Under the pieces are notes generated by a model, which saw nothing but the letters and a program-made list of their open reading frames with translations, ran no database searches and was not told the origin of the DNA. The translations under genes and the position numbers were made by a program. Positions 1-64,000 of a stretch of DNA of 64,000 bases are shown here, in pieces; position 1 is the first letter of the stretch, and each line of letters opens with the position of its first letter. The DNA is from Escherichia phage vB_EcoS_HdK1: sequence record MK373794.1. The stretch is one strand, 5' to 3'.

Positions 1-105
1 TTTATATAAATACACACATATACACATTTTTACCTTATTTTTCATGCACTTACCTCCTTTCATTTCGTATATTAAGCGACAATATACGAGCAATATAAGA
101 AATAT

Positions 106-119
106 TTGTTGCGCAACAA
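106..119. repeat. Perfect 14-bp palindrome TTGTTGCGCAACAA in the non-coding control region (second copy at 60798..60811)
   Basis: Read directly from the sequence; lies in the ~1.07-kb non-coding region spanning 60336..60692 and 1..678. Confidence 0.6.
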
Positions 120-617
120 CGAGGCGCTCACAAGCTCGCGCACGCGCATAATGCGGGCACGCGGTCTAACACAAAAGAAAATTGAATTGCAAGCGATTTT
201 TGCTGAGGTAACTCTCGAAGCGAAAGCGATTTGCGAGTTTGAAATTTTGTAGCCCGAAAACGATTCTATTTTATGGTATAAATGTCGGATTTTTCGGTGA
301 AAGGTGGCTTTTCGGTGAGGTTGGGTGGCTGGGATCGGTGTAACTGGTAGCCCATAAAGCGAAAATAGCCGCGAAAACGGGGCACGCAGCGCGATTAAAT
401 GGTTGGATCAGTGTAAGGGTGGCGGTGAGGGGGCGAAAATGCCGCAAAATCGCTTACAGGGATGCAGGGAGTGGGCCGCTGTAAGGGCGTATAAGGCGAT
501 TAAATTGGAGTCTATGGTAATGTATGGAAGATGGATTTAGGCTCTTAGAGCGCGAATGGTGGAGCTATGGGTGAGGAATATGTGGTCAGCAGGGTAGCGC
601 GGGAGGTTATGCAGGTA

Positions 618-660
618 CAAAAACGAAAGCGCCCCGTTGGACTTCAACAGGGCGCGGATT
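618..660 (-). terminator. Rho-independent terminator ending the leftward early operon
   Basis: GC-rich inverted repeat GCGCCC..GGGCGC directly downstream of the stop of the 679..927 gene; on the minus strand it is followed by a T-rich tract. Confidence 0.55.
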
Positions 661-678
661 GTATAATGCTTTTAGAAG

Positions 679-927
679 TTATTTACTAGTTAATAATACC
701 GCCCAGGTATTATCTGGAAGCGTACCAACTCCGAGTATCTTAAACTGAAGCGACTTGTTCTGCATGTTGTAGTTGTCGAGTAACTCCTGGGCAGCCGCAG
801 CAGCGTTCGCTTCACCGTTCAGGTTGTAGTCGTTTGCAGTTATTGCACACATACCGAGACCGACCGCTTTGAAGCGCATACCTTTGGATTGAGTCGGTGC
901 AAGTGCTTTAACATGGATAGCGTTCAT
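679..927 (-). CDS. Hypothetical early protein, 82 aa (paralog family A)
   Basis: ORF track; shares an AAAA(Q/E)EL..F(K/E)ILG/SGG..P(D)..(W/Y)A pattern with the 1458..1703 product. Confidence 0.5.
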   Translation of the reverse strand: MNAIHVKALAPTQSKGMRFKAVGLGMCAITANDYNLNGEANAAAAAQELLDNYNMQNKSLQFKILGVGTLPDNTWAVLLTSK

Positions 928-956
928 ATTATTTATCTCCGTTACAATTTGAAAGG

Positions 957-1220
957 TTAGCAGTTTTTTAACAGGTTGATGAAGCCCACCAGCGTGGACG
1001 CTGTTGCAACCAGGCGGCCCATAGTATGCAGTTCCGCGTAAACTTTACCGTCGTCAAACACAGTTAAATAAACGTTAAGACCATTGCAACGGACGCGATA
1101 TTTGCGCGAGTTATTACCAAAAGTTTCCAGCTCTGCGGTGATAGTCGCAAGATTAGCTATACGTTTGCCGATAATGCGGCGAGTGATAGTGGACTGGTTT
1201 AATACTGTAGACATAATCAT
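957..1220 (-). CDS. Hypothetical early protein, 87 aa (paralog family B)
   Basis: ORF track; N-terminal motif STITRRIIGKRI matches SQITKRIIGKRL of the 2529..2835 product; AGAGG ribosome-binding site upstream. Confidence 0.5.
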   Translation of the reverse strand: MIMSTVLNQSTITRRIIGKRIANLATITAELETFGNNSRKYRVRCNGLNVYLTVFDDGKVYAELHTMGRLVATASTLVGFINLLKNC

Positions 1221-1245
1221 TTCCTCTGTTAACTATGCGAAGTGC

Positions 1246-1274
1246 ATATTATTGCCCACTGTTACTATGGGCAA
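1246..1274 (-). promoter_or_regulatory. Sigma70-like promoter (minus strand: -35 TTGCCC, 17-bp spacer, -10 TAATAT) overlapped by an inverted repeat (candidate operator)
   Basis: Hexamers and spacing read from the reverse complement; inverted repeat TTGCCCA-N9-TGGGCAA at 1252..1274 covers the -35 box and spacer; lies 26 bp upstream of the 957..1220 start. Confidence 0.45.
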
Positions 1275-1282
1275 TGTATATG

Positions 1283-1447
1283 TCACTCAGCGGACACATA
1301 TTCTAACGCTTCTGATAGTGTAGCGAAGTAACCATCGCTCACCAGATTAATAGCGTACTCAAGTTGATCGCGGGTCAGGTTGCGAAACTTGTTACGGATG
1401 TGATAGCAACGACCGCGATAAATAACCTGGAAATAGTTGCGTTCCAT
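1283..1447 (-). CDS. Hypothetical small protein, 54 aa
   Basis: Internal ATG of the 1283..1603 track ORF preceded by AAGGGG; the longer track ORF would overlap the neighbouring gene. Confidence 0.4.
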   Translation of the reverse strand: MERNYFQVIYRGRCYHIRNKFRNLTRDQLEYAINLVSDGYFATLSEALEYVSAE

Positions 1448-1457
1448 AATTATCCCC

Positions 1458-1703
1458 TTATGCAACGATGAACGCGTAACCGCTTTGATCCGGGAGTTCA
1501 CCACCGGAAAGAATTTCAAACTCAACGCCCGCTTTATCGCTGAACTTTTTGATAAGCTCTTCCGCTGCGGCGCGGTGGTTGCCGTAAACACCAAGATCGT
1601 CACGCCACGTGATAGTCAAGGAGCCGTTCCAACCTGTTGCTTTTACGCGCGGGTTACGGGTGGCAGTCGGGTTCATGAATTTTGTGATGATAGCTTGAGC
1701 CAT
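1458..1703 (-). CDS. Hypothetical early protein, 81 aa (paralog family A)
   Basis: ORF track; paralogous to the 679..927 product. Confidence 0.5.
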   Translation of the reverse strand: MAQAIITKFMNPTATRNPRVKATGWNGSLTITWRDDLGVYGNHRAAAEELIKKFSDKAGVEFEILSGGELPDQSGYAFIVA

Positions 1704-1708
1704 GATAA

Positions 1709-1894
1709 TTACTCCGGTAAAATTACAGTGACGTTAATATTTGCAAGGCGAGCGCACTCGCGGAAACCTTTTACATAAGCATCCATTTCGTCATAGGATG
1801 CGAAAGTTGCGTCCGGGACTGGTCCGTTGTTAATATTCACGCAATATTCGTGTTCGTCCAGGTCAACCCAACAAGTCAGAACGATAGTTTCCAT
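1709..1894 (-). CDS. Hypothetical small protein, about 61 aa
   Basis: Internal ATG (METIVL..) preceded by GGAGGG; acidic, Cys-containing. Confidence 0.4.
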   Translation of the reverse strand: METIVLTCWVDLDEHEYCVNINNGPVPDATFASYDEMDAYVKGFRECARLANINVTVILPE

Positions 1895-1972
1895 ATTATT
1901 TGCCCTCCGTATAATACAGACCCGCAACTATTGGAGCTCCGAAAACTAAGAAAGCTAATAAATAGAACATAA

Positions 1973-2452
1973 TTAGTTACCCCCTTTATTGTTGAGCCCG
2001 TTGAATTTACGCCATGCGTAGAATTCAATCGTTGCATTATTAATATTCCAACCATTAGCTTTCGCAAGGTCACGGACGTTACCAATAGTTGGCACACCAT
2101 CAGGCAACATATTATCCAGGGCATTCCAAACGTCTGCGCATTTACCTTTAATCGGGCGACGAACCCCGTTGCGCGTTTCGCTGCGCGTTTTGCTCTTGGC
2201 TGGAGCGACCGGAGCTTGTTGTGTGGTCACTTCCACGACAGTCGCTTTATCAGCTTCCACCAGATCGCTAGCTGCCTTATTAACCGCGCTTTCGCTGTAC
2301 CAGTAGCGACCACCGTCTTCGTGCGGTTCCTGGTGAATAAAGCTATTTGCTGTCGCAGTGTCCACATCCAGAACCTTTTTTAAGGCACGGCGAGCGTTAG
2401 ACATAGTGGCGAAGAAGCGAGCGTCTTTTGCTACGCGAGTGATAGTAACCAT
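1973..2452 (-). CDS. Hypothetical early protein, about 159 aa
   Basis: ORF track; start placed at the ATG preceded by GGAGAT; no recognisable catalytic motif. Confidence 0.45.
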   Translation of the reverse strand: MVTITRVAKDARFFATMSNARRALKKVLDVDTATANSFIHQEPHEDGGRYWYSESAVNKAASDLVEADKATVVEVTTQQAPVAPAKSKTRSETRNGVRRPIKGKCADVWNALDNMLPDGVPTIGNVRDLAKANGWNINNATIEFYAWRKFNGLNNKGGN

Positions 2453-2492
2453 TGTGAATATCTCCATGTTGTTCTAGCGGATTGCTAGTGGG

Positions 2493-2513
2493 AGCCCACT
2501 GTTACAATGGGCA
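2493..2513. repeat. Second copy of the conserved inverted-repeat element GCCCACTGTTAC(A/T)ATGGGCAA
   Basis: Near-identical to 1252..1274; both sit in intergenic gaps between leftward early genes. Confidence 0.55.
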
Positions 2514-2528
2514 ACCATTAGCACGCTA

Positions 2529-2835
2529 TTATTGTTGAATAGCTTTATCTATCATTGCGATGAAGCAGAACACAGACCAAAGGCTATTCGCTTGGCATAC
2601 TGCGCGACCATACATTACGCTATAAGAGCTGACAGTACCGTCCTCGTTAATGCGAATATATAACGCGGTGCTGGAATACTTTTCGTTGCCCGGGAGCATT
2701 ACTAAATACTCGTCGAAACCCCAATCCCCGTCGACTTTTTCCGCAGTAAGGCCCAGTTGGTGCAGTCGCTTGCCAATAATGCGCTTAGTAATCTGAGATT
2801 GGGACATGGAACGCGGTAAGTAGATAATGGACATA
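2529..2835 (-). CDS. Hypothetical early protein, about 102 aa (paralog family B)
   Basis: ORF track; start placed at the ATG preceded by AAGGGAG; paralogous to the 957..1220 product. Confidence 0.5.
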
Positions 2836-2909
2836 ATGCAATCTCCCTTCGGGTGAGGCGGGCGCGGAACCCGTGTCCCGCTTAACAACCCCCTTAACCC
2901 TACACAGTT

Positions 2910-2938
2910 ATAGTATGACAACGGGGTATCAGATGCAA
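2910..2938 (-). promoter_or_regulatory. Sigma70-like early promoter for the leftward operon (minus strand: -35 TTGCAT, 17 bp, -10 TACTAT)
   Basis: Hexamers and spacing read from the reverse complement, about 75 bp upstream of the first leftward gene. Confidence 0.4.
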
Positions 2939-3014
2939 CTATTATCTGCAATATTTTAGAACTTTTTTAGTTGTGTTTCATAATAATAACATCCGGGACT
3001 ATGCGGTAGATGGT

Positions 3015-3088
3015 GTGCCGGAAATACCAGGTAGCGCGAGCGTGCCGAAAATACCAGGTAACAGCACGCGCCGAACATACCAGGTAGC
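3015..3088. repeat. Three tandem ~27-bp iteron-like repeats (core ATACCAGGTA) followed by an AT-rich tract; candidate origin or protein-binding array (second copy 63707..63780)
   Basis: GTGCCGGAAATACCAGGTAGC / GTGCCGAAAATACCAGGTAAC / CGCCGAACATACCAGGTAGC read directly; AT-rich stretch at about 3130..3230. Confidence 0.55.
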
Positions 3089-3476
3089 ACATACATAGAC
3101 AGCACATAGTGGGCAGGTGGATAGTAACAGATGCAATTATACTGGACGGTACAGTATAGTCATGTAATAGATAGCATACTAATTAAATAAAAAATAATAA
3201 CGCGTGTAACAATAAACAACGTTACAGTAGAGCGCGCAACAGTCACATGACGTAACAATCACCTCACTGACGATCACGGGACGTTATAGTAACGCCGCGG
3301 GGCGGCTCTTAGATCTCTGCCAAGGATTCTAGACGTAAACATTGAATCGCCACTAGACTATTTACATCACAACCTCACTCCTCACACAATAATACATAGA
3401 ATTTAAATCCGTATATAAATACTCGAGATAGTATCTACATATTCGAGGATGAGTGCTCAATCATTGTAGGTTATAA

Positions 3477-3956
3477 ATGCGTATCAATTGGTGTGATTAT
3501 TTCTCTTACGAAGATGGTAGACTTTACTGGAAGGCCAGTAGAGGAAGAATACGAGTAGGTTCAGAAGCCGGAAGCGAGGACCAACAAGGTTACATTGTGG
3601 TCAGGTTAAACGGGAAAGATTATAAAGCCCACCGCATCATTTGGGAAATGCACTATGGGCCGATACCAGAAGGAATGGAAGTTGACCACATTTGGCATAA
3701 CCGAAAAGATAACCGGATTGAGAATCTGCGGTTAGTGACGCGTACAGGTAATGGGCGTAATCAGTCTAAATTTGCGACAAATACATCAGGTGTAACTGGT
3801 GTGAATTGGAATAGCCGGGCTGGTAAATGGAGAGCGGAAATTTATGTTGATGGAAAGCATATATCTCTTGGTTTATTCACAATCTTTAATGATGCTGTCT
3901 TAGCGCGTAAATCGGCCGAGGCTAAGTATGGTTTCCATAAAAATCATGGCGAGTGA
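3477..3956 (+). CDS. HNH endonuclease with a C-terminal AP2-like DNA-binding domain (homing-endonuclease type)
   Basis: HNH motif region AHRIIWEMHYGPIPEGMEVDHIWHNRKDNRIENLRLV, then a GVTGV..W.A.I pattern typical of AP2 domains. Confidence 0.8.
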   Translation: MRINWCDYFSYEDGRLYWKASRGRIRVGSEAGSEDQQGYIVVRLNGKDYKAHRIIWEMHYGPIPEGMEVDHIWHNRKDNRIENLRLVTRTGNGRNQSKFATNTSGVTGVNWNSRAGKWRAEIYVDGKHISLGLFTIFNDAVLARKSAEAKYGFHKNHGE

Positions 3957-4016: not shown

Positions 4017-4382
4017 ATGAACGAGAATATAGTTAAAGCCTGGTCTATCTTACGACCACAGCTGAAAGACGATCATGTCGCTTTTGTTTTATGTCCTGCT
4101 AACGAATATCGCCGGAAGCTCGAAGAAGTGTTGCGCGAAGATCCTGAGTTCGTTCGCTGTGTGCAACTGTCGCGCGAGTCATCTGTGGTACAGTTTGATC
4201 GTTTCCATCTTCGTTTGGTTTCTCATCACAGAGCATCGTATGAAGACACTGTTATTCGTACGAGTGGCTTTCATTGCGATATTGCAATTCTTGACTGCAA
4301 ACTGGACATTGGGCAGAAACAGGATTTATATAATCTCGCTCGTGAACGTCATGGTGAATTGTTAATTGTGGAAGTGCAATAA
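4017..4382 (+). CDS. Hypothetical protein, 121 aa
   Basis: ORF track; AAAGGGG ribosome-binding site; stop/start coupled to the next gene. Confidence 0.45.
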   Translation: MNENIVKAWSILRPQLKDDHVAFVLCPANEYRRKLEEVLREDPEFVRCVQLSRESSVVQFDRFHLRLVSHHRASYEDTVIRTSGFHCDIAILDCKLDIGQKQDLYNLARERHGELLIVEVQ

Positions 4383-5163: not shown

Positions 5164-5517
5164 ATGAGCTTGCAACGTTTTGACAATGCAGAACTCGCGT
5201 GTGAATTTGCAAAGCGCAAGTTCGCTAAAACAGGTACGCCGCGATGCGTGCACGCGGCTATTGGGCAAAATGGGGCAAAGTATTGGTACGTTGGTACAGT
5301 AGCTCAGATCAAGCGAAGATTCGCGACTACGCTCGAAATGCGCCGGCTTGGGTCCCCTACACTTGTACGAAACAGGCACTTGGATAAAGAGGAAATTTAT
5401 CAATTTCTCAGAAATTACACTGGTAAAGAGAATAGATTTCAGGTTGCAGCGAAAGAGTTTAATATTGGTCTTTCCACTGCTTATAAAATTTATCACATAT
5501 ATGGGCGTTTAATATGA
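5164..5517 (+). CDS. Hypothetical protein with a C-terminal helix-turn-helix-like segment
   Basis: Segment AAKEFNIGLSTAYKIY fits an HTH pattern. Confidence 0.35.
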   Translation: MSLQRFDNAELACEFAKRKFAKTGTPRCVHAAIGQNGAKYWYVGTVAQIKRRFATTLEMRRLGSPTLVRNRHLDKEEIYQFLRNYTGKENRFQVAAKEFNIGLSTAYKIYHIYGRLI

Positions 5518-34308: not shown

Positions 34309-36282
34309 TTAAGCGGCGTATGCGAGTTTTTCCAGCAATTTTTCCGCTTTAGCTATGTACACTTCGTGGTTGAGATCTGGCGGTAACTGGTCAGTGAGTT
34401 CCATCATAGGTTTACCCCCTGCTGTTTTACCGACACGACCGCCACTCTTGACTATCAATATCTCAGGTACTTCCTCTTTCGTATAGTACCAACGAACGAC
34501 TTTACCTAATGGTTCATTATTCCATGCAGCACCACCATTAGCAGTCTTGATACAAACAAACTTACGAATGTCCTGACACTCTGTGATGGTTTTGGCAATT
34601 GGTGTACCGTCACGAAGAAGGTTAACCACAGCATCCATAATGATCTCGCCTTCCGCGTTCTTAGCTAGACCAGTCTCGGCAAACCAACCTTTACGCTTGG
34701 CTTTACCATCTGCTTTGATTGCAACGTAGTTGTTAACGTTTGCAGAGTTAAGGCGCAGGTACTGGTTCAACTCCATTTCAAAGCCAGTTGTTTCTTCCCA
34801 CCACTTGATGATATCAGTCATTAATTGCTTCTTAGCTTTGCAAGGTTTAATAACAATACCATCCGTGTTAGCACTGACGACCTGAATACCATTAAGCTCC
34901 AGTGTCTCAATGAGCATAAGCAGAGCTAACTGTCCTGTCAGCGTAGTCTGAATAATAAGATGCGGTGCATACAGAATAGAGAACGGTGAACCGAACTTAC
35001 CATAAGAGCCGTTGATAACGATCTTAAGAGTTTGTGCAGTCTTATCGTCATGAGCCATCTTGGCTGCAATACGTCGTTCTACGATCTTAACGAAGATATC
35101 GATAAAGCGCGGGCCCAGGTGTTCAGGATACAGTTGCTGGTTAATGATACAGATCGGGTAGTATGACGTTACGTCAGCATCCCACATCTCTTCATCTTCA
35201 GATGGTACAATCTCCATTAACTCTTCGCAGGAGTGCAGACCACCGATACCCATGTTGTAAGTTGTCTGGTTGATTGTAAACTTCAAAGAGTTCATTGTAG
35301 ATGGTTGCTTAATTTTACCATCTTCTGCGACTCGGAAGTAACTATCAAGCACAACCTGAAATACGGACTTCATTAGTGGCGTTTGGAAACCTAACCACAC
35401 TGGAGGATTGTACCTAAAGGTTCTGCCGACTTCCACCATACCCTTCTGAGGTACGAAGCCCAACATTTCCTTCATTTCGTGACGGATTACAGCTTCTGCA
35501 ATCTGTGCATCTGATTTAGAGCGAAGGTCCACTTTGTACTCTTCACTCATAATCTCACGTAGATGGATCTGCTCTTCCAGTGAGTTAAACAGAGCCATTG
35601 TTGTATCAAGGTCGTTAATACAGTAGAAGCGCACAATAGCAATCTGTTCTACGGATAACGCCCAATGTGGTGGGAATGGTAAGTCCTGGAGCTTCTGCAT
35701 GTGCATACGGCCACCATACAGCTTCAACGAACCGAAGCCAGGAGCTACCTCTTGAACGTCAATGTGGTCAATCCAAAACTGTTTTACACCAAAACTGTTA
35801 AGAATGTCCCACGGAGCCCACTCTTCCTGGATCATCCTGTCACTTGCTTCTTTCAGCTTGTCAACAGTCAGACCAGCAATGGCAAGGAATGTCATCGTAT
35901 TATCGTAGTTTCTTGAGTTGAAACCAACAGTACGAAAGTTCTTCATTATCCATTCATATTTTTCCGTGTCAAGTGTCTGACCGGCAGTCATTTCTAGATA
36001 ATAGACCTTACCAAACTTAACCCCTTTAAACGCCACAAGAAAATAGTTCTTATAACATTCGATATCGTATACGAACGTTTCTTGTGCAAAATACATCTCC
36101 ACTAATTCACCGTCTGTCATACGCGGATCATTAGCTGCAAAACGCATTGCTGCATCAAGACCTGGAAGGTAGTCCGGACGCTCCCATACTCTTTCAACTG
36201 GTTGACGTTTTACTTTCTGTTTCTTCTCTTTCTTAGCGGGAGGTAAATCCTCCCAAAAGAAACCAATAGCATCTTTTCTCAT
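34309..36282 (-). CDS. DNA polymerase (family B-like polymerase motifs, no obvious exonuclease domain)
   Basis: 657 aa; motif-like segments DADVTSYYP, K..INGSYGKFG and VSANTDGI. Confidence 0.7.
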   Translation of the reverse strand: MRKDAIGFFWEDLPPAKKEKKQKVKRQPVERVWERPDYLPGLDAAMRFAANDPRMTDGELVEMYFAQETFVYDIECYKNYFLVAFKGVKFGKVYYLEMTAGQTLDTEKYEWIMKNFRTVGFNSRNYDNTMTFLAIAGLTVDKLKEASDRMIQEEWAPWDILNSFGVKQFWIDHIDVQEVAPGFGSLKLYGGRMHMQKLQDLPFPPHWALSVEQIAIVRFYCINDLDTTMALFNSLEEQIHLREIMSEEYKVDLRSKSDAQIAEAVIRHEMKEMLGFVPQKGMVEVGRTFRYNPPVWLGFQTPLMKSVFQVVLDSYFRVAEDGKIKQPSTMNSLKFTINQTTYNMGIGGLHSCEELMEIVPSEDEEMWDADVTSYYPICIINQQLYPEHLGPRFIDIFVKIVERRIAAKMAHDDKTAQTLKIVINGSYGKFGSPFSILYAPHLIIQTTLTGQLALLMLIETLELNGIQVVSANTDGIVIKPCKAKKQLMTDIIKWWEETTGFEMELNQYLRLNSANVNNYVAIKADGKAKRKGWFAETGLAKNAEGEIIMDAVVNLLRDGTPIAKTITECQDIRKFVCIKTANGGAAWNNEPLGKVVRWYYTKEEVPEILIVKSGGRVGKTAGGKPMMELTDQLPPDLNHEVYIAKAEKLLEKLAYAA

Positions 36283-52528: not shown

Positions 52529-52804
52529 TCATACCGTACATTTTTGCCAATGGCCCATAGAAAATGACAGCGAAGTGCAGACAACTTCCAACCCGTCATC
52601 ATCACGTACCACGGGCAAAGCTAGGCCGCTGCGGGCGTTATGTACAGTGCGGTGTACTCTATACACAGAGTTATGCGTAAAGCGCCGCGTGTTCGCGTTT
52701 GTGCAGCGTAATAACGATCCGATATGCACAAGTGGAGCAGGCATAGTAAAACCAATCATTAGATCCTTCTCTTTCTTATTAGGCTGGCGTACAGTTACAT
52801 TCAT
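52529..52804 (-). CDS. Hypothetical protein, 91 aa
   Basis: ORF track. Confidence 0.35.
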   Translation of the reverse strand: MNVTVRQPNKKEKDLMIGFTMPAPLVHIGSLLRCTNANTRRFTHNSVYRVHRTVHNARSGLALPVVRDDDGLEVVCTSLSFSMGHWQKCTV

Positions 52805-52979
52805 TGTGTCGTCCCCTCATTTAAAGATTCCAGGCGCCCACCTAACAAAATGAGCGATTTAATTTGATGCGGTTTCTTACCAAGATGTTCAGCAATGTGG
52901 TTATAAGTAAAACCTTTCTCCCGCATACGATAAGCAGTAATGGCGGCATTGCGATTGCGGATATCGGTTTTCTTACTCA
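52800..52979 (-). CDS. Small HTH DNA-binding protein (Ner/Nlp-like), 59 aa; below the ORF-track size cutoff
   Basis: Manual translation MSKKTDIRNRNAAITAYRMREKGFTYNHIAEHLGKKPHQIKSLILLGGRLESLNEGTTQ; HTH-like core. Confidence 0.3.
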
Positions 52980-53285
52980 TGGTAAACTAGCTCCCCTTAA
53001 TTTAGCTTCAATACGATTAATTAGCATCGACATACTACGATCTGCAACCATATGATGCGGTTCGTAGTAACCATATGCCCAATAGTTTACCTCTTGCCCA
53101 CAATGATTACAATTAATCTTTGACTCGCATACAGGCGAATAGTAGCCATCCACTTGATCTACGACAATCTCTGTAAACTCAGTGTGACCACACTTTGGGC
53201 ATCGTATGCACTTCATTTTCTTGTCGTAGTTTGAGCGAAAAGTATAAGGCTTCCACCCTAACACCTTGTATATTTTGCTAGGCAT
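52977..53285 (-). CDS. Zinc-ribbon protein, 102 aa
   Basis: Two C-x2-C pairs (CIRCPKCGH ... CNHCGQ). Confidence 0.4.
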   Translation of the reverse strand: MPSKIYKVLGWKPYTFRSNYDKKMKCIRCPKCGHTEFTEIVVDQVDGYYSPVCESKINCNHCGQEVNYWAYGYYEPHHMVADRSMSMLINRIEAKLRGASLP

Positions 53286-54610: not shown

Positions 54611-54636
54611 ATGGGCGCATATAGCGCCCATTTTTT
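54611..54636. terminator. Terminator after the plus-strand moron (also downstream of the primase-like gene end)
   Basis: ATGGGCGC..GCGCCCAT stem followed by TTTTTT. Confidence 0.6.
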
Positions 54637-57201
54637 ATAACTTAATAACTTCGTTCATTCTCTCAATATCTACCAAATAACACTTCATTCTCGGTGGTGT
54701 AAACTCTGCGCCGAAGAAATTTGAAAAGTCCATTGGCCTCATCTCGGTAAGAACTTCCATAGACATCAAACCATAGATTGTATTGTCTATGACCTGTAGG
54801 ATGTTGTCATTTCTTGTCTGTTTAAAAGCCTTGAACTGGCGACATACTGTGCATAGATCACTCCTTGTGACAATAAATGCGTCCTTAAACATGGGAAACC
54901 GTTTATATACACCAGCTTTAACTTCACCATCCAAGAACTTCTTAATGGAGTTCAGCATTATCTTCTCACGACTTGTACTGTCCGTAGAACCAATCTGCCC
55001 ACTGTTACGCTTCTCTAAGAAACGCTCGTTACCCTGATCGATAAATGACTCAGCCCAACGATAATGTTCCATAGTGACAACAGGACGCTCACTGTTATCT
55101 GCAACAGCAAGAAGAGAAGCTATACGCAATACCTTCAACGCCTTCCTTGTGTACATCTGACGAATTACTTCGTCTTGCACCTGCTCACCATCATTGCCGC
55201 TGTTCAGGAACTTCGCAACAATATTATCAAGATTATCAAACGCTTCGTGTACCTCTGCTTCCATTTCAACATAACACGGAGCAGTCCCTGACATAATACG
55301 CACAGCTTGTTTATAGATAGCTCCAATAGTGCGCAGTATTGCTTCTGGATATTCCAGGAGCATACTCTTATTCATCAATGGGCGGTTAGCTGTACATTCC
55401 CATGCGATAATACGGGACATGAAACCACTCGACATCATGCGGTCATCTACGTTCCCGTAAAATTCATCTGGTGTTGTTTCACCTGCAAAACTATACGCCT
55501 TAACCTTACCGCCAGCAGTCGTATTATCTTTACTAGAGTGCTTTGAACCACCAGAGAAAGCATAGAAATGCCCCTTGTCATAAAGGGAAAGCATTTCATC
55601 CATAATGTCTTTAGCTTTACCGACTTCCATCTTACCGTTACGGAAAAAATGCACCGACTTCAGTCTTATAGTTAATGGATGAGCCACAAGACATAACGGA
55701 CGTATCCATTATGACATCCTTGCGCAATGCAGCATCAGACGCATAGGTACTTGTATCCAAGACACGTTCGATACCAAATATCTGCTGACCGTCTTGACCG
55801 CCATAATTGGATACTTGAGAAAAAAAAGAATAGTTTCAATGTTGGAGCGAAACGCTTCTTTACCAATACCAGAACGTGCAATTAGTACAAAGTAGTTATT
55901 CAAACCACTTCGTGTGACTGTGTTCCACGCCTTACCGCACATACCACTAAATAAAGCAAGCGCAGACAGAATACTAATGTCTTTAATAGGCAACAAGCTC
56001 GCTTTATACATATTACGCGCAACCTCGCCCATAAAGCCCGGAGGCCAAGCCAAACCGTCTGCCTGCTCTTCAGTGTAATTACCATCTGTAGTCAACACTT
56101 CTTCAGGTGGGCGTTCTGGTGTAGTTGCTTGACGTAGTTTTTCCGTGCGCTCTATAGCTGCATTAACGTTATTCTGAACTATCTGCATAAGTCCCATAGA
56201 TTTAACATGGGCATCGTAGCGATAGTTGCGAATCATTCTATCCAGGTGGTACGGACGTTTAATTTTTTCACCAGGCATACGACGGGGAATCATCGTAACG
56301 GCTACTCATTGGTGAATACATGAATAGACGTCTTACCTGGAAATTGTACTTACTCTTAAAGCAAAGAAAGTCAATTAATGCAAATTCTGCTTCAGACTGA
56401 GAAGGGAAACAACGTTCACCGATTAGAAGTATCAACTTCTTCAGCTCTCCAACGACCCTCCCATAGCTGCTTAAACAATGTTCCGTTTTCTTGTTCGCAC
56501 AACTGAATATAGACATCCTGGTCTTCCATTGCATATGGGTCGTTACTAAAATCTTCTTCAGTAAGTTCCAGCATTTGGAAGCCATCAGACTCATTAATCT
56601 CACTCATCTCAGACATAAGTTGGATGAATGAGATTAGCGATATACCCTTCGCTTTCACTGCCTGGAGCACCAGACACAGTGCGCGGGAGTAAAGTAACAT
56701 CCCAGTGATCCCCTGTACAGATAATAAAACGATACTGGGAATACACTTCCACACCGTCACGGCGCTTACCAGCCTGAGGGGATGGAATAAATCCATGTGT
56801 GCAACCCATCACCGCTTCTGGAAATTTCCGTATAGCTATGGAAACGATTCAACAATCTTCTTATATCGCTCACCAGCAACTTTCTTTTCCATTTCAGACA
56901 TGGTATCTTTAATGTCCATGTCGATACAACAGAACGGGTCACTTGGAAGTAGATAGAAACCTAAACGCAAGTTATGACCAATCTCGTTATAATAACGAAC
57001 GCAGCGTTCAGCATCTTCAAAAGACATAAGTAAATGCAGGTTAGACGGTTTCTTATCATTACCGTCTTTACGAAGTGGGACCATATCCCCTAAATCATCG
57101 TCCCATACATAAGGTTGTTTTTCTGATGATGTACCCGGATGGAAACCGCAGACAGCCCACTGTTCGTATTGTTTAATTTCTTGAGGAAAAAGTTCCAGCA
57201 T
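54635..57201 (-). CDS. Putative bifunctional DNA primase-polymerase (AEP-type N-terminal domain plus C-terminal domain), fragmented into at least five ORFs by apparent frameshifts
   Basis: Track ORFs 54635..55687, 55709..56293, 56416..56796 and 56836..57201 plus alternate-frame readings form one continuous coding region; AEP-like motifs CIDMD and RSGDGLH; frame changes at plus-strand A6 (55645..55650) and A8 (55821..55828) runs. Confidence 0.45.
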
Positions 57202-59116: not shown

Positions 59117-59446
59117 TTAATTTGCATGTTCACCTCGAAGCAGACGCTCGAGCTTCGATTTATTTTTGATAAGCTGATATTGCCGATCCACCACAAGCGC
59201 CTTCTGACGGTTACGCATAAGGTATTCGAACGCACTTTGAAAATCTTCGACTTTACCTTCATAACCTAAAGCCTTGGCGACGTGCGACACGCGATGGAAC
59301 AGAAAGTCCGCAAAGTCCATAATTTCCATCGCATTGACAATAGCGTCAAGTAAATCAGGATTTATATTCGGGTCCACCTTTTTAGCTTGTTCAAGAAGTC
59401 GCACCTTTGCTTTATATAAAGGTGAATTGCTTACTGTTTGCATCAC
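59117..59446 (-). CDS. Hypothetical protein, 109 aa
   Basis: ORF track. Confidence 0.4.
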   Translation of the reverse strand: MMQTVSNSPLYKAKVRLLEQAKKVDPNINPDLLDAIVNAMEIMDFADFLFHRVSHVAKALGYEGKVEDFQSAFEYLMRNRQKALVVDRQYQLIKNKSKLERLLRGEHAN

Positions 59447-60335
59447 TTCCTCCAGATATCACGCGATTCTTTAATACGGATGTTATACCGTATAAGTTGC
59501 TGCATAACTTTATGCAGGTCATCGAGATGCTTCCTTAAACGAAGACGTTTCTTGATAGCCCACAAGTTCTTCATATCCGTTCGTTGGAGATCCTCCCTTA
59601 AATACAATGAAAAGTCAGTCTGGTGATCTAAGATAAATTGGATACGCATCAAAGTATCCGACTTACGATAATCAGGATACCACTTAGGAAGCACATCTTG
59701 TTCGCCAATCATCTTACGCTCCAAACTGATCAATGTATTCAATGAGCTCTTGCAATTCTTGCTGTAACTGCACATTACCACTATTATTCGTCTGAAGTCT
59801 AACGAGGCGTTCCTTGATATGTGCAATGTGGTTAGTGCCCATCCGACGCTTCTGTACATCACACCAGCGAACAACACCATCTTCAATATATGCACGACGG
59901 GCTTTACCACGCGGGTATCGCAGCGGCGCCGAATTTCACACTTATCGCCCACCCACTTAAAGCCCAGGATCATAACAGCGTTACCTTCCGTATCAGGACA
60001 CACGTCAAAACAACTGTTGAACCCTTTACTGCGCATATACTCGTCGAGCGGAATCACCTTATCAGGCGACAACCATTGATACCCGAAGTAAATATCGACA
60101 GTGAACACCGTACCCAACATCGGAGCCGACCAGCACATATACATCCGCCCGTCATCCAACTTCTTGACCGCATTCGGCCCGCAACACGAGGCCAGCCGCC
60201 TTCCACGCTTTGACCACATTAATCGTGTTGTCCTGCTCCTGAAAGATTGCGTCTGCCTGCATATATGTAGGCGCGTCCCAGCCCGAACATTTCCTTTACA
60301 TGAGCATTAGTGATTTTAACCTTTTGATTGCGCAT
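59443..60335 (-). CDS. First gene of the leftward replication-block operon; hypothetical, with apparent internal frameshifts
   Basis: ATG at 60335 preceded by AGGTGAGG; protein-like reading switches frame at least twice before joining track ORF 59443..60219. Confidence 0.3.
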
Positions 60336-60414
60336 AACCTCACCTTTGATGATAATAAATCGATTAATTTTGAAATTCAGTTGCCGGTTTTATGTTTATT
60401 TTACGCAATGTGTT

Positions 60415-60545
60415 TTGCAATACAATATTGATATATTTTGTTTTTGCATTGCAATGTTTTTGTATTGCAAAAATTACAACAGTCTGAAGGTGAGAAATTG
60501 CAAATTTATAAAGATTGGTGAAAAAATGCACAATTTATAAAGATT
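60415..60545. promoter_or_regulatory. Early control region with four ATTGCAA/TTGCAAT half-site motifs (one perfect palindrome ATTGCAAT at 60448..60455) and a 14-bp direct repeat AATTTATAAAGATT (60503..60516 and 60532..60545)
   Basis: Motifs read directly from the sequence in the AT-rich region upstream of the leftward replication operon. Confidence 0.45.
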
Positions 60546-61309
60546 CAGCAATATACGAAACGGCGAAGCGAAGTGTATGAAAAATAAGGGAAAATTTCGA
60601 GAGTTGGGAGGTTTGTAGTGATTTATATTATTTATAAAGGGGTCTCGTGGGGTCGTCAGTAGACAACTCAAAAATAAAAAATCTTTATAAAATTTATATA
60701 AATACACACATATACACATTTTTACCTTATTTTTCATGCACTTACCTCCTTTCATTTCGTATATTAAGCGACAATATACGAGCAATATAAGAAATATTTG
60801 TTGCGCAACAACGAGGCGCTCACAAGCTCGCGCACGCGCATAATGCGGGCACGCGGTCTAACACAAAAGAAAATTGAATTGCAAGCGATTTTTGCTGAGG
60901 TAACTCTCGAAGCGAAAGCGATTTGCGAGTTTGAAATTTTGTAGCCCGAAAACGATTCTATTTTATGGTATAAATGTCGGATTTTTCGGTGAAAGGTGGC
61001 TTTTCGGTGAGGTTGGGTGGCTGGGATCGGTGTAACTGGTAGCCCATAAAGCGAAAATAGCCGCGAAAACGGGGCACGCAGCGCGATTAAATGGTTGGAT
61101 CAGTGTAAGGGTGGCGGTGAGGGGGCGAAAATGCCGCAAAATCGCTTACAGGGATGCAGGGAGTGGGCCGCTGTAAGGGCGTATAAGGCGATTAAATTGG
61201 AGTCTATGGTAATGTATGGAAGATGGATTTAGGCTCTTAGAGCGCGAATGGTGGAGCTATGGGTGAGGAATATGTGGTCAGCAGGGTAGCGCGGGAGGTT
61301 ATGCAGGTA

Positions 61310-61352
61310 CAAAAACGAAAGCGCCCCGTTGGACTTCAACAGGGCGCGGATT
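61310..61352 (-). terminator. Second copy of the early-operon terminator (same as 618..660)
   Basis: Within the terminal duplication. Confidence 0.55.
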
Positions 61353-61370
61353 GTATAATGCTTTTAGAAG

Positions 61371-61619
61371 TTATTTACTAGTTAATAATACCGCCCAGGT
61401 ATTATCTGGAAGCGTACCAACTCCGAGTATCTTAAACTGAAGCGACTTGTTCTGCATGTTGTAGTTGTCGAGTAACTCCTGGGCAGCCGCAGCAGCGTTC
61501 GCTTCACCGTTCAGGTTGTAGTCGTTTGCAGTTATTGCACACATACCGAGACCGACCGCTTTGAAGCGCATACCTTTGGATTGAGTCGGTGCAAGTGCTT
61601 TAACATGGATAGCGTTCAT
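61371..61619 (-). CDS. Duplicate of the 679..927 gene (paralog family A)
   Basis: Identical translation in the ORF track. Confidence 0.5.
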   Translation of the reverse strand: MNAIHVKALAPTQSKGMRFKAVGLGMCAITANDYNLNGEANAAAAAQELLDNYNMQNKSLQFKILGVGTLPDNTWAVLLTSK

Positions 61620-61648
61620 ATTATTTATCTCCGTTACAATTTGAAAGG

Positions 61649-61912
61649 TTAGCAGTTTTTTAACAGGTTGATGAAGCCCACCAGCGTGGACGCTGTTGCA
61701 ACCAGGCGGCCCATAGTATGCAGTTCCGCGTAAACTTTACCGTCGTCAAACACAGTTAAATAAACGTTAAGACCATTGCAACGGACGCGATATTTGCGCG
61801 AGTTATTACCAAAAGTTTCCAGCTCTGCGGTGATAGTCGCAAGATTAGCTATACGTTTGCCGATAATGCGGCGAGTGATAGTGGACTGGTTTAATACTGT
61901 AGACATAATCAT
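61649..61912 (-). CDS. Duplicate of the 957..1220 gene (paralog family B)
   Basis: Identical translation in the ORF track. Confidence 0.5.
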   Translation of the reverse strand: MIMSTVLNQSTITRRIIGKRIANLATITAELETFGNNSRKYRVRCNGLNVYLTVFDDGKVYAELHTMGRLVATASTLVGFINLLKNC

Positions 61913-61974
61913 TTCCTCTGTTAACTATGCGAAGTGCATATTATTGCCCACTGTTACTATGGGCAATGTATATG

Positions 61975-62139
61975 TCACTCAGCGGACACATATTCTAACG
62001 CTTCTGATAGTGTAGCGAAGTAACCATCGCTCACCAGATTAATAGCGTACTCAAGTTGATCGCGGGTCAGGTTGCGAAACTTGTTACGGATGTGATAGCA
62101 ACGACCGCGATAAATAACCTGGAAATAGTTGCGTTCCAT
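61975..62139 (-). CDS. Duplicate of the 1283..1447 gene
   Basis: Within the terminal duplication. Confidence 0.4.
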   Translation of the reverse strand: MERNYFQVIYRGRCYHIRNKFRNLTRDQLEYAINLVSDGYFATLSEALEYVSAE

Positions 62140-62149
62140 AATTATCCCC

Positions 62150-62395
62150 TTATGCAACGATGAACGCGTAACCGCTTTGATCCGGGAGTTCACCACCGGA
62201 AAGAATTTCAAACTCAACGCCCGCTTTATCGCTGAACTTTTTGATAAGCTCTTCCGCTGCGGCGCGGTGGTTGCCGTAAACACCAAGATCGTCACGCCAC
62301 GTGATAGTCAAGGAGCCGTTCCAACCTGTTGCTTTTACGCGCGGGTTACGGGTGGCAGTCGGGTTCATGAATTTTGTGATGATAGCTTGAGCCAT
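62150..62395 (-). CDS. Duplicate of the 1458..1703 gene
   Basis: Identical translation in the ORF track. Confidence 0.5.
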   Translation of the reverse strand: MAQAIITKFMNPTATRNPRVKATGWNGSLTITWRDDLGVYGNHRAAAEELIKKFSDKAGVEFEILSGGELPDQSGYAFIVA

Positions 62396-62400
62396 GATAA

Positions 62401-62586
62401 TTACTCCGGTAAAATTACAGTGACGTTAATATTTGCAAGGCGAGCGCACTCGCGGAAACCTTTTACATAAGCATCCATTTCGTCATAGGATGCGAAAGTT
62501 GCGTCCGGGACTGGTCCGTTGTTAATATTCACGCAATATTCGTGTTCGTCCAGGTCAACCCAACAAGTCAGAACGATAGTTTCCAT
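62401..62586 (-). CDS. Duplicate of the 1709..1894 gene
   Basis: Within the terminal duplication. Confidence 0.4.
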   Translation of the reverse strand: METIVLTCWVDLDEHEYCVNINNGPVPDATFASYDEMDAYVKGFRECARLANINVTVILPE

Positions 62587-62664
62587 ATTATTTGCCCTCC
62601 GTATAATACAGACCCGCAACTATTGGAGCTCCGAAAACTAAGAAAGCTAATAAATAGAACATAA

Positions 62665-63144
62665 TTAGTTACCCCCTTTATTGTTGAGCCCGTTGAATTT
62701 ACGCCATGCGTAGAATTCAATCGTTGCATTATTAATATTCCAACCATTAGCTTTCGCAAGGTCACGGACGTTACCAATAGTTGGCACACCATCAGGCAAC
62801 ATATTATCCAGGGCATTCCAAACGTCTGCGCATTTACCTTTAATCGGGCGACGAACCCCGTTGCGCGTTTCGCTGCGCGTTTTGCTCTTGGCTGGAGCGA
62901 CCGGAGCTTGTTGTGTGGTCACTTCCACGACAGTCGCTTTATCAGCTTCCACCAGATCGCTAGCTGCCTTATTAACCGCGCTTTCGCTGTACCAGTAGCG
63001 ACCACCGTCTTCGTGCGGTTCCTGGTGAATAAAGCTATTTGCTGTCGCAGTGTCCACATCCAGAACCTTTTTTAAGGCACGGCGAGCGTTAGACATAGTG
63101 GCGAAGAAGCGAGCGTCTTTTGCTACGCGAGTGATAGTAACCAT
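62665..63144 (-). CDS. Duplicate of the 1973..2452 gene
   Basis: Identical translation in the ORF track. Confidence 0.45.
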   Translation of the reverse strand: MVTITRVAKDARFFATMSNARRALKKVLDVDTATANSFIHQEPHEDGGRYWYSESAVNKAASDLVEADKATVVEVTTQQAPVAPAKSKTRSETRNGVRRPIKGKCADVWNALDNMLPDGVPTIGNVRDLAKANGWNINNATIEFYAWRKFNGLNNKGGN

Positions 63145-63220
63145 TGTGAATATCTCCATGTTGTTCTAGCGGATTGCTAGTGGGAGCCCACTGTTACAAT
63201 GGGCAACCATTAGCACGCTA

Positions 63221-63527
63221 TTATTGTTGAATAGCTTTATCTATCATTGCGATGAAGCAGAACACAGACCAAAGGCTATTCGCTTGGCATACTGCGCGAC
63301 CATACATTACGCTATAAGAGCTGACAGTACCGTCCTCGTTAATGCGAATATATAACGCGGTGCTGGAATACTTTTCGTTGCCCGGGAGCATTACTAAATA
63401 CTCGTCGAAACCCCAATCCCCGTCGACTTTTTCCGCAGTAAGGCCCAGTTGGTGCAGTCGCTTGCCAATAATGCGCTTAGTAATCTGAGATTGGGACATG
63501 GAACGCGGTAAGTAGATAATGGACATA
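63221..63527 (-). CDS. Duplicate of the 2529..2835 gene
   Basis: Identical translation in the ORF track. Confidence 0.5.
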
Positions 63528-63706
63528 ATGCAATCTCCCTTCGGGTGAGGCGGGCGCGGAACCCGTGTCCCGCTTAACAACCCCCTTAACCCTACACAGT
63601 TATAGTATGACAACGGGGTATCAGATGCAACTATTATCTGCAATATTTTAGAACTTTTTTAGTTGTGTTTCATAATAATAACATCCGGGACTATGCGGTA
63701 GATGGT

Positions 63707-63780
63707 GTGCCGGAAATACCAGGTAGCGCGAGCGTGCCGAAAATACCAGGTAACAGCACGCGCCGAACATACCAGGTAGC
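63707..63780. repeat. Second copy of the three tandem iteron-like repeats (same as 3015..3088)
   Basis: Within the terminal duplication. Confidence 0.55.
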
Positions 63781-64000
63781 ACATACATAGACAGCACATA
63801 GTGGGCAGGTGGATAGTAACAGATGCAATTATACTGGACGGTACAGTATAGTCATGTAATAGATAGCATACTAATTAAATAAAAAATAATAACGCGTGTA
63901 ACAATAAACAACGTTACAGTAGAGCGCGCAACAGTCACATGACGTAACAATCACCTCACTGACGATCACGGGACGTTATAGTAACGCCGCGGGGCGGCTC

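Follow-up and report, generated by a model that had tools for sequence, protein, structure and literature searches.

The repeats upstream of the replication operon of Escherichia phage vB_EcoS_HdK1 as a possible promoter region and signal for the left virion end

What purpose is served by the short repeats that crowd the AT-rich DNA between the replication operon and the terminal repeat of Escherichia phage vB_EcoS_HdK1 (HdK1)? The stretch of DNA that we analysed (64,000 nucleotides, sequence record MK373794.1, here called the window) carries between positions 60,415 and 60,545 four copies of ATTGCAA/TTGCAAT, one of them forming the palindrome ATTGCAAT, and two copies of AATTTATAAAGATT. A first-pass annotation, made from the letters alone, had taken them for an operator array or an early promoter cluster governing the replication genes. 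However, the core of AATTTATAAAGATT recurs, once direct and once inverted, in a palindrome that holds the left end of the virion genome, and this points to chromosome-end formation over transcription. We therefore put forward, tentatively and with slightly less than even confidence, that the repeats represent a weak promoter region together with a recognition module for the cut that forms the left end of the direct terminal repeat (DTR), both lying in an AT-rich, non-coding, cis-acting module of about 430 bp (60335-60765). As a promoter region and a terminal-repeat boundary signal, these motifs would belong to known kinds of element, of which they would be a new case.

Repeats at the left end of the virion genome

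The window derives from a Nonagvirus (9g-like) phage and is 94% identical to HdSG1, and the region around the repeats shows 88-94% identity to Escherichia and Salmonella Nonagvirus phages (9g, JenK1, JenP1, JenP2, HdSG1 and others). HdK1 was described as a 64-kb Nonagvirus by Korf et al. (2019), who set the genome ends where PacBio reads stopped abruptly. Positions 1-3308 agree with positions 60693-64000 without a single mismatch over 3,308 bp and constitute the DTR. The right end of the window (...GGCTC/TTAGATCT) is also the right end of HdSG1 and the position of the mapped terminase cut of 9g at nt 28243; the last bases, ...GCGGGGCGGCTC, are common to the window, the HdSG1 record and the 9g sequence ending at that nucleotide. 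The identical ends, together with this shared right end, indicate that the window is a complete 64,000-bp virion genome consisting of a 60,692-bp unit and the 3,308-bp DTR. The 9g cut, which is the major terminase (pac) cut of that phage, was mapped by run-off sequencing (Tsai et al. 2017, PMC5567051) and is located 2 bp from a BglII site, directly after two 21-bp repeats with the core SRYCRCGGGRCG. As leftward packaging from pac was proposed in both 9g papers (PMC5567051, PMC4276943), the left end at 60693 would be the end packaged last.

Both copies of AATTTATAAAGATT were found where the first-pass annotation had placed them, at 60503-60516 (M1) and 60532-60545 (M2), 29 bp apart from start to start. 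They are parts of a 29-bp tandem repeat, which also holds the fourth ATTGCAA copy (60497-60503). The 9-mer core of AATTTATAAAGATT, TTTATAAAG, is present exactly four times on both strands of the whole window, and all four copies fall within 187 bp (60505-60691). We compared motif counts with 20,000 dinucleotide-preserving shuffles of the local stretch 60335-60760 (29% GC), and none of these reached four copies of TTTATAAAG (mean 0.02). The third copy (M3) and the inverted fourth copy (M4) belong to an imperfect palindrome of about 215 bp, in which they form the inner arms, centred at about 60661 (60661-62). When 60545-60770 was folded as single-stranded DNA, one long hairpin was obtained (-30.6 kcal/mol, z = -5.06), and not one of 200 shuffles was as stable.

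For a comparative footprint, 13 Nonagvirus genomes were aligned and five metagenomic contigs were then added. Apart from M4, which reads TGTATAAAG in HdSG1, FritzHoffmann and ChristophMerian and is also variant in one metagenome contig, TTTATAAAG is invariant in the 13 isolates and the five contigs, and in the window its copies make up a single site per genome unit. Invariant columns account for 83-90% of 60450-60540, 87% of 60570-60600 and 87-93% of 60630-60750, which equals or exceeds the neighbouring coding DNA; no other blocks of the gap are as well conserved as the 29-bp repeat and the palindrome.

Two left ends have been deposited, both called by the depositors where PacBio reads end abruptly. 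The window begins with TTTATATAAATAC (60693), and HdSG1 begins with TTTATAAAGGGG, at the equivalent of window position 60631, which is the first base of M3. Both thus start with 5'-TTTATA, a hexamer that starts at only 4 of the 226 positions of the palindrome, and the two cut positions (60630/60631 and 60692/60693) are mirror-symmetric about 60661.5, the centre of the inner arms. M3, M4 and the TTTATATAAAT element therefore coincide with the physical end of the virion genome.

The restriction data published for 9g bear on the same question. The DraI sites that flank pac in 9g (19878 and 33395) delimit a 13,517-bp fragment, which is divided by the pac cut into 8,363 and 5,154 bp. If the left end lies at the 9g M3 (25160), its fragment should measure 8,238 bp and the terminal repeat 3,084 bp; if it lies at M5, the TTTATATAAAT element (25223), the expected sizes are 8,175 and 3,021 bp. 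Tsai et al. (2017, PMC5567051) reported that the 13.5-kb and 5.2-kb DraI fragments were absent and that a doublet of about 8.4 kb was present, and they inferred a redundancy of 3.0-3.2 kb. This pattern matches an end at M3/M5 quantitatively, with an exact DTR extending about 3.05 kb left of pac. Because the band was a doublet instead of a smear, the second 9g end is discrete and fixed. Moreover, an exact DTR predicts one cut and one uncut pac copy per molecule, and the authors' estimate that 33-50% of pac sites are cut (PMC5567051) therefore fits as well. Judging by these predicted fragments, the 9g data fit exact-repeat packaging better than headful termination and run counter to the authors' own interpretation.

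It thus appears more likely that the TTTATAAAG repeats mark the left-end cut site than that they are repressor-binding sites, and the invariant 29-bp repeat would most likely form a functional unit with M3, M4 and the palindrome. As a whole, this unit might constitute the recognition module for the left-end cut, and we infer that the motifs direct the cutting. In this scenario, after a unit genome had been packaged, packaging would pass an uncut pac site and proceed for a further 3.3 kb, and the terminase or an accessory nuclease would then cut immediately 5' of TTTATA in the palindrome. Such a cut would be site-specific and gated by head filling, and it would yield an exact terminal repeat instead of a headful end. 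M1 and M2, situated on the unpackaged side, may serve as flanking docking sites for binding proteins.

Several observations weigh against this proposal. The published interpretation of the 9g authors is headful, non-specific termination with circular permutation (PMC5567051). The deposited left ends are 62 bp apart despite a near-identical local sequence, and both calls rest on read stops, not on run-off sequencing at nucleotide resolution. This 62-bp difference may mean that both sites are used, that the end is staggered or that one call is imprecise, and the mutated M4 of HdSG1 may be relevant here. The mapped ends are touched by M3, M4 and the adjacent TTTATATAAAT element only; M1 and M2 are 90-190 bp away, outside them. 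The TTTATAAAG repeats have no similarity to the mapped pac repeats, and therefore one small-terminase specificity cannot account for both ends. No binding protein for the motifs was identified among the proteins scanned. Finally, TTTATAAAG contains the -10-like hexamer TATAAA, so that a transcriptional role is possible, while the promoter that we assign to the neighbouring spacer (see below) is predicted from sequence and reaches only moderate scores (8.4 in the window, 6.5 in HdSG1).

A second pac site near the palindrome was also sought. With up to one mismatch allowed, the pac core SRYCRCGGGRCG was found in the window only at 3272-3304 and 63964-63996, and hence no 9g-type pac is present at 60560-60760. 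Local alignment of the pac region with 60560-60760 was not significant, as 26% of shuffles reached the best score. A pac-like sequence at the centre of the palindrome (ACTGACGA..CACGaGAC) was rejected, because 26% of shuffles scored equally and the pac core was absent. Literature searches returned no description of these repeats, the palindrome or the left end in any Nonagvirus.

The gap, the ATTGCAA copies and the promoter region

The repeats are located 150-280 bp outside the left boundary of the DTR and, as the first-pass annotation had stated, upstream of the replication operon, in a region that continues into the terminal repeat at 60693; the first gene of this leftward operon follows directly. 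A homologue of this first gene is annotated in every relative; the helicase-primase is encoded about 3 kb downstream of the operon start, in a long leftward operon with other replication genes. The earlier view that the region is flanked by the starts of two leftward blocks held on the left side only, since on the right side there are the 3' end and the intrinsic terminator of the leftward DTR genes. This terminator is also annotated in HdSG1 and SP8. The intervening stretch of about 985 bp contains no credible gene. Open reading frames (ORFs) annotated there in some records are inconsistent between records, and because every ORF that can be drawn is broken by 1-nt indels among close relatives, the gap is non-coding; a 103-aa ORF at 60474-60785 was ruled out as coding on the same grounds. 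The description of the region as AT-rich and non-coding was thus borne out, 60335-60760 being the most AT-rich non-coding stretch (29% GC in comparison to about 44%). No known RNA family or tRNA was detected in the gap, where Rfam gave two sub-threshold chance matches (to models of a eukaryotic microRNA and a fly long non-coding RNA), far under the gathering scores.

The coordinates given earlier for the ATTGCAA/TTGCAAT copies proved exact (Table 1). Further copies of the palindrome ATTGCAAT are present at 4281, 16166, 28312 and 48145. Of the 43 TTGCAA in the 60,692-bp unique genome, four lie here within 89 bp. At least four TTGCAA were reached in the local shuffles with P=0.0005 (mean 0.44), and the five ATTGCAA/TTGCAAT matches observed on both strands with P=0.0001. 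The 150-bp segment starting at 60411 (60411-60560) has the highest TGCAA/TTGCA density of the genome, namely nine, with five in the next-best segment. Tandem Repeats Finder resolved copies 2 and 3 as one unit each of a tandemly duplicated 16-bp sequence (60439-60470, TGTTTTTGCATTGCAA).

Nevertheless, the 7-mer is not conserved. The part of the gap that contains copies 1 and 2 (60390-60450) is its least conserved one, with 27-30% invariant columns. Four ATTGCAA/TTGCAAT copies are present in the 90-bp spacer of the window, HdSG1 and ESCO3, but none or one in the other 10 isolates and none in the four scorable metagenome contigs; in 6 of the 13 genomes, TTGTAC stands in place of copy 4. What every genome keeps is 5-7 TGCAA/TTGCA pentamers per 90-bp spacer. 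A conserved hairpin or cruciform in this stretch was considered and rejected, as its 13-bp inverted repeat is confined to the window lineage and the predicted folds vary from lineage to lineage.

As a strong terminator lies upstream of the operon, the operon needs its own promoter in the gap. The candidate sigma-70 promoter listed in Table 1 has a -35 hexamer which abuts or overlaps ATTGCAA copy 1, and its position-weight-matrix score in the window is 8.4. At the same position, ten relatives have the pair TTGCAA-17-TAAATT (score 9.8), and HdSG1 and ESCO3 have TTGCAT-17-AAAAAT (score 6.5). Despite this divergence in sequence, the distance from the end of the -10 hexamer to the ATG downstream is kept at 56-62 nt in all 13 genomes. 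The DNA upstream of the candidate is rich in A-tracts on the transcribed strand. A higher leftward score, 9.0, was obtained for TCGAAA-17-TACACT (60600->60572), but this pair is 236 nt upstream, in a palindrome arm, and occurs in only 6 of the 13 genomes. The genome-wide 99.99th percentile of promoter scores is 10.2. Consensus and position-weight-matrix scans revealed no strong sigma-70 promoter in 60335-60800, whereas good ones were found inside the operon; the consensus scan gave no minus-strand promoter anywhere in 60200-61450, and no strong sigma-70 consensus promoter that uses the AATTTATAAAGATT repeats was found. Of the early promoter cluster suggested at first, one modest predicted promoter with a position conserved in 13 of 13 genomes is therefore retained, and strong promoters on the AATTTATAAAGATT repeats are not. 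No transcriptome for any Nonagvirus was found in literature searches.

The TTGCA(A)-rich spacer (60398-60470) might thus be the promoter region of the replication operon, in which one TTGCA-type hexamer would act as the -35 element and the -10 element would precede the ATG by about 60 nt. The remaining TTGCA copies would be a fast-evolving filler of A/T-tracts and TGCA, which may aid RNA polymerase or bind an activator. In comparison to sigma-70 promoters with A/T-rich upstream DNA (UP-element-like), the candidate shares a TTGCA(A/T)/TTGTAT -35 hexamer, a TAAAAT/TAAATT -10 hexamer, 16-17 bp spacing and upstream A-tracts. It differs in that its match to the consensus is only moderate, and there are several much better promoters inside the operon.

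Table 1. Positions of the elements in and around the gap (window coordinates)
Feature	Position	Strand	Details
Start codon and Shine-Dalgarno sequence of the first replication-operon gene	ATG 60335-60333; GGTGAGG 60344-60338	-	ORF list and sequence; no variation among the 13 aligned genomes
Candidate sigma-70 promoter of the replication operon	60398..60425	-	-35 TTGTAT (60425-60420), 16-nt spacer, -10 TAAAAT (60403-60398); predicted start near 60391
T-rich spacer	60415..60470	.	TTGCAAT 60415-60421, ATTGCAAT 60448-60455, ATTGCAA 60464-60470; 13-bp perfect inverted repeat, 60413-60425 with 60460-60472
29-bp tandem repeat	60489..60545	+	Two units, 60489-60516 and 60517-60545; consensus GGTGAAAAAATGCACAATTTATAAAGATT; Tandem Repeats Finder score 93
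Imperfect palindrome, about 215 bp	60550..60765	.	Arms 60550-60560/60755-60765 (100%), 60571-60594/60720-60743 (92%), 60621-60636/60688-60703; repeat search
M3, third TTTATAAAG	60631..60639	+	Position 1 of the HdSG1 virion genome aligns to its first base
M4, fourth TTTATAAAG, inverted	60683..60691	-	Ends 2 nt before the window's own left end
DTR, right copy	60693..64000	.	Equals 1-3308; position 60693 = position 1 = virion left end, 5'-TTTATATAAATAC
Intrinsic terminator closing the leftward DTR genes	61321..61347	-	About 985 bp upstream of the operon; 11-bp stem with 8 G-C pairs, then TTTCGTTTTT
pac site	63964..64000; same sequence at 3272-3308	+	Two repeats, cores GATCACGGGACG and CGCCGCGGGGCG; right end ...GGCTC at 64000 (proposed to be packaged first); pattern search

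Alternative explanations

The reading closest to the first-pass annotation is that an early phage regulator binds the palindromic cores (ATTGCAAT and TTTATAAA) as an operator or activator array and switches the operon, with the distal inverted copy allowing looping. On one hand, the array is upstream of the operon and after a terminator, both cores are palindromic, and the 29-bp repeat is invariant. Direct and distal inverted repeats are combined here, and an outgroup phage has the same architecture with the dyad-symmetric ATAGC-TG-GCTAT; in addition, a weak predicted sigma-70 promoter would suit dependence on an activator. On the other hand, the ATTGCAA 7-mer is confined to the window/HdSG1/ESCO3 lineage, its copies 1 and 2 lie in the least conserved part of the gap, and the relatives do not keep the structure of the 13-bp inverted repeat, so that an array of conserved ATTGCAA operators is not supported. 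Dyad-symmetric sites conserved in relatives, as expected for the operators of a helix-turn-helix dimer, were not found, and TTTATAAAG is asymmetric, its G being kept in all four copies. The motifs are present nowhere else in the genome, which would make for a single-site regulon, and motif copies lying exactly at the genome end would be left unexplained. As to the regulator, two small helix-turn-helix proteins had been suggested: the product of 5164-5517 has no Pfam match, and that of 52801-52980 has only sub-threshold helix-turn-helix-like matches (E 0.05-0.09). At E<=0.01, Pfam gave no match for 5164-5517 or for six small DTR-encoded proteins, and all PHROG matches were of 'unknown function'; thus, no above-threshold DNA-binding domain was found in the suggested or the neighbouring small proteins. 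The annotation of a 'potential sigma factor' in 9g and DNA-binding domains in the candidate regulators likewise received no Pfam support. Overall, we find this explanation unlikely.

A replication origin, in which the repeats would be iterons for the helicase-primase or another initiator, the AT-rich spacer would unwind and the palindrome would be auxiliary, seems improbable. It would agree with the low GC content of the stretch, with the adjoining replication genes, with the presence of direct and inverted repeats, with a minimum of the cumulative GC skew at 60-61 kb and with an iteron-like array (GCTAAYnATTAG) in the outgroup gap. However, there are only two tandem units, which at 29 bp are not helically phased, and the turn of the GC skew is confounded by gene orientation. 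Consensus sites for the host proteins DnaA and IHF, as well as CRP/FNR-type sites, are lacking in the gap, and an origin does not account for the coincidence with the genome end.

A more far-reaching version of the end-formation idea can also be considered, though we regard it as quite improbable. According to this version, Nonagviruses would be exact-terminal-repeat phages, not headful ones, whose left end arises by symmetric staggered nicks, leading to a hairpin that primes duplication of the 3.3-kb repeat, with the 29-bp repeat docking the nicking complex. The two nicks would be placed on opposite strands, each 5' of a TTTATAAAG copy, about 61 nt apart and inside the 215-bp palindrome. The self-complementary overhang would then fold back into a hairpin end, which would be a sequence-defined version of the long-debated 'hairpin' route of T7.

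Tandem sigma-70 promoters would make TATAAA in TTTATAAAG a -10 hexamer, with M1, M2 and M3 firing leftward and M4 rightward, or would use TTGCAA-18-TGaAAAAAT in the rightward direction. Suitable leftward pairs can be drawn at M1 (TTGTGC-17-TATAAA) and M3 (CTGACG-17-TATAAA), there is a rightward pair with an extended -10 at 60498-60527, and the context is AT-rich. Nevertheless, the scores are 5.6, 6.5 and 8.2 (genome ranks 300-1500), the TATAAA ones being low because this hexamer is devoid of the near-invariant final T. By reading of the sequence, M2 and M4 have no usable -35; only weak pairs overlapping M2 were scored (5.0-5.1), and none at M4. The consensus scan gave no minus-strand promoter in 60340-60600, and a -10 hexamer does not require conservation of a 9-mer beyond the hexamer. 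We thus consider such promoters very improbable.

That the repeats have no specific function, being low-complexity AT-rich DNA with recent tandem duplications that hitch-hike beside functional elements, is hardly credible: two repeat sets are indeed simple tandem duplications and the ATTGCAA part evolves fast, yet both 29-bp units are invariant in the 13 isolates and the five metagenome contigs while the flanking spacer diverges, and the motif counts far exceed the expectation from local composition.

Related systems and further observations

The gap DNA and the protein of the first operon gene were found only in Nonagvirus. Seuratvirus was too distant for footprinting (primase 29% identical), and the ends of Pseudomonas phage Iggy, whose terminal repeat is known, are laid out differently. 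In the outgroup Klebsiella phage vB_Kpn2-P2 (primase 37% identical), the layout is the same but the motifs differ: its 1.25-kb gap has two direct repeats near the operon, 43 bp from each other, with inverted copies further away, as well as inverted arms at long range. The same gap also holds an iteron-like array (3412-3532 of that genome), in which at least five GCTAAYnATTAG-type units are spaced by 15 and 29 bp, and an AT-rich centre flanked by inverted TACTACAG-type arms that are separated by 280 nt.

In its proposed way of working, the left end seems closest to the T7/T3 concatemer junction and to lambda cos, with no sequence homology to either. T7 and T3 have an exact terminal repeat (160 bp in T7) and flanking arrays of short repeats. 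A hairpin-end processing model for their concatemer junction was reportedly put forward by Chung, Nardone and Hinkle in 1990 (cited in PMC4925675). Common to that junction and the locus described here are an exact DTR cut at defined positions on both sides, short repeats beside the boundary and an inverted repeat at the boundary that could fold back. In contrast, the present phage is a siphovirus whose repeat measures 3.3 kb instead of the 160 bp of T7, its palindrome contains the cut positions and does not stand beside them, and there is no phage RNA polymerase or pause site. Lambda cos (cosQ-cosN-cosB) comprises a symmetric nicking site with flanking repeated small-terminase sites and an IHF site. 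The proposed left-end module would share with it a specific termination cut gated by head filling, repeats on the side not yet packaged and symmetric cleavage positions, but it has no cohesive ends and no IHF consensus, and the sequences used at the two virion ends (the pac repeats and TTTATAAAG) bear no relation to each other. The pac site of 9g (PMC5567051) belongs to the same genus and forms the other boundary of the same DTR, and it too has two short direct repeats beside a precise cut. It differs in its motif (SRYCRCGGGRCG) and in having been mapped by experiment, and for termination its authors assumed a headful, non-specific process.

A 2026 review states that less is understood about how exact direct terminal repeats arise than about cos or headful packaging. 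Nonagviruses infect E. coli and grow easily; they are represented in the BASEL collection, and their pac end has been mapped. If the palindrome and TTTATAAAG set the other end, the formation of an exact DTR would become testable by end mapping and motif mutants, and the published 'headful' interpretation for 9g would need correcting. For annotators, it would show where Nonagvirus genomes should be linearised, and the gap of about 1 kb should not carry small ORFs, as it does in several deposited records. If, however, the motifs are only promoter or operator elements, the finding is an ordinary one.

With respect to the leader of the operon, a minus-strand RNA would contain CUCACCUU (60494-60487, in repeat unit 1), which is complementary to the Shine-Dalgarno region AAGGUGAG (60340-60347), and both are invariant in the 13 genomes. 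A leader RNA that hides the ribosome-binding site by means of CUCACCUU was considered and rejected: pairing is possible, but only G-U/G-C wobble-compatible changes were seen, with no covariation, and CUCACCUU would lie outside the transcript of the best candidate promoter.

Two operon genes are split in the window. The 850-aa helicase-primase of relatives appears as at least four overlapping ORFs (54635-57201, minus strand), and the first operon gene (59443-60335, minus strand), of about 206 aa elsewhere, appears as a 38-aa ORF and a 258-aa ORF fusing parts of two PHROG families. These splits look like indel errors of the deposited long-read assembly, not like biology.

The conserved gap contains a variable cassette at 60780-60870, of which two unrelated versions exist among Nonagvirus, the window and JenP2 sharing one of them; a third is present in PD328, SP8 and SE1. 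Directly leftward-downstream of the terminator, 60990-61300 (identical to 298-608) is non-coding and well conserved among relatives, with a strongly G-rich plus strand (GC skew +0.18), so that any leftward read-through RNA would resemble a Rho-utilisation site in being rich in C and poor in G. In JenP1, an annotated homing endonuclease (1846-2271) is inserted in the non-coding gap, at the equivalent of about 61140 in the window. The window itself carries another endonuclease gene, with HNH_3 and AP2 domains (3477-3956), which lies only 169 bp past the pac cut. The small minus-strand genes of the DTR form two paralogous pairs, 61371-61619 with 62150-62395 and 61649-61912 with 63221-63643, which correspond to phrog_3199 twice and phrog_13865 twice, both of unknown function; the 'TetR family' label on a 9g homologue is without Pfam support. 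Finally, a single tRNA-Ala gene (anticodon TGC) is located at 34712-34785, at the junction of the rightward structural and the leftward replication genes.

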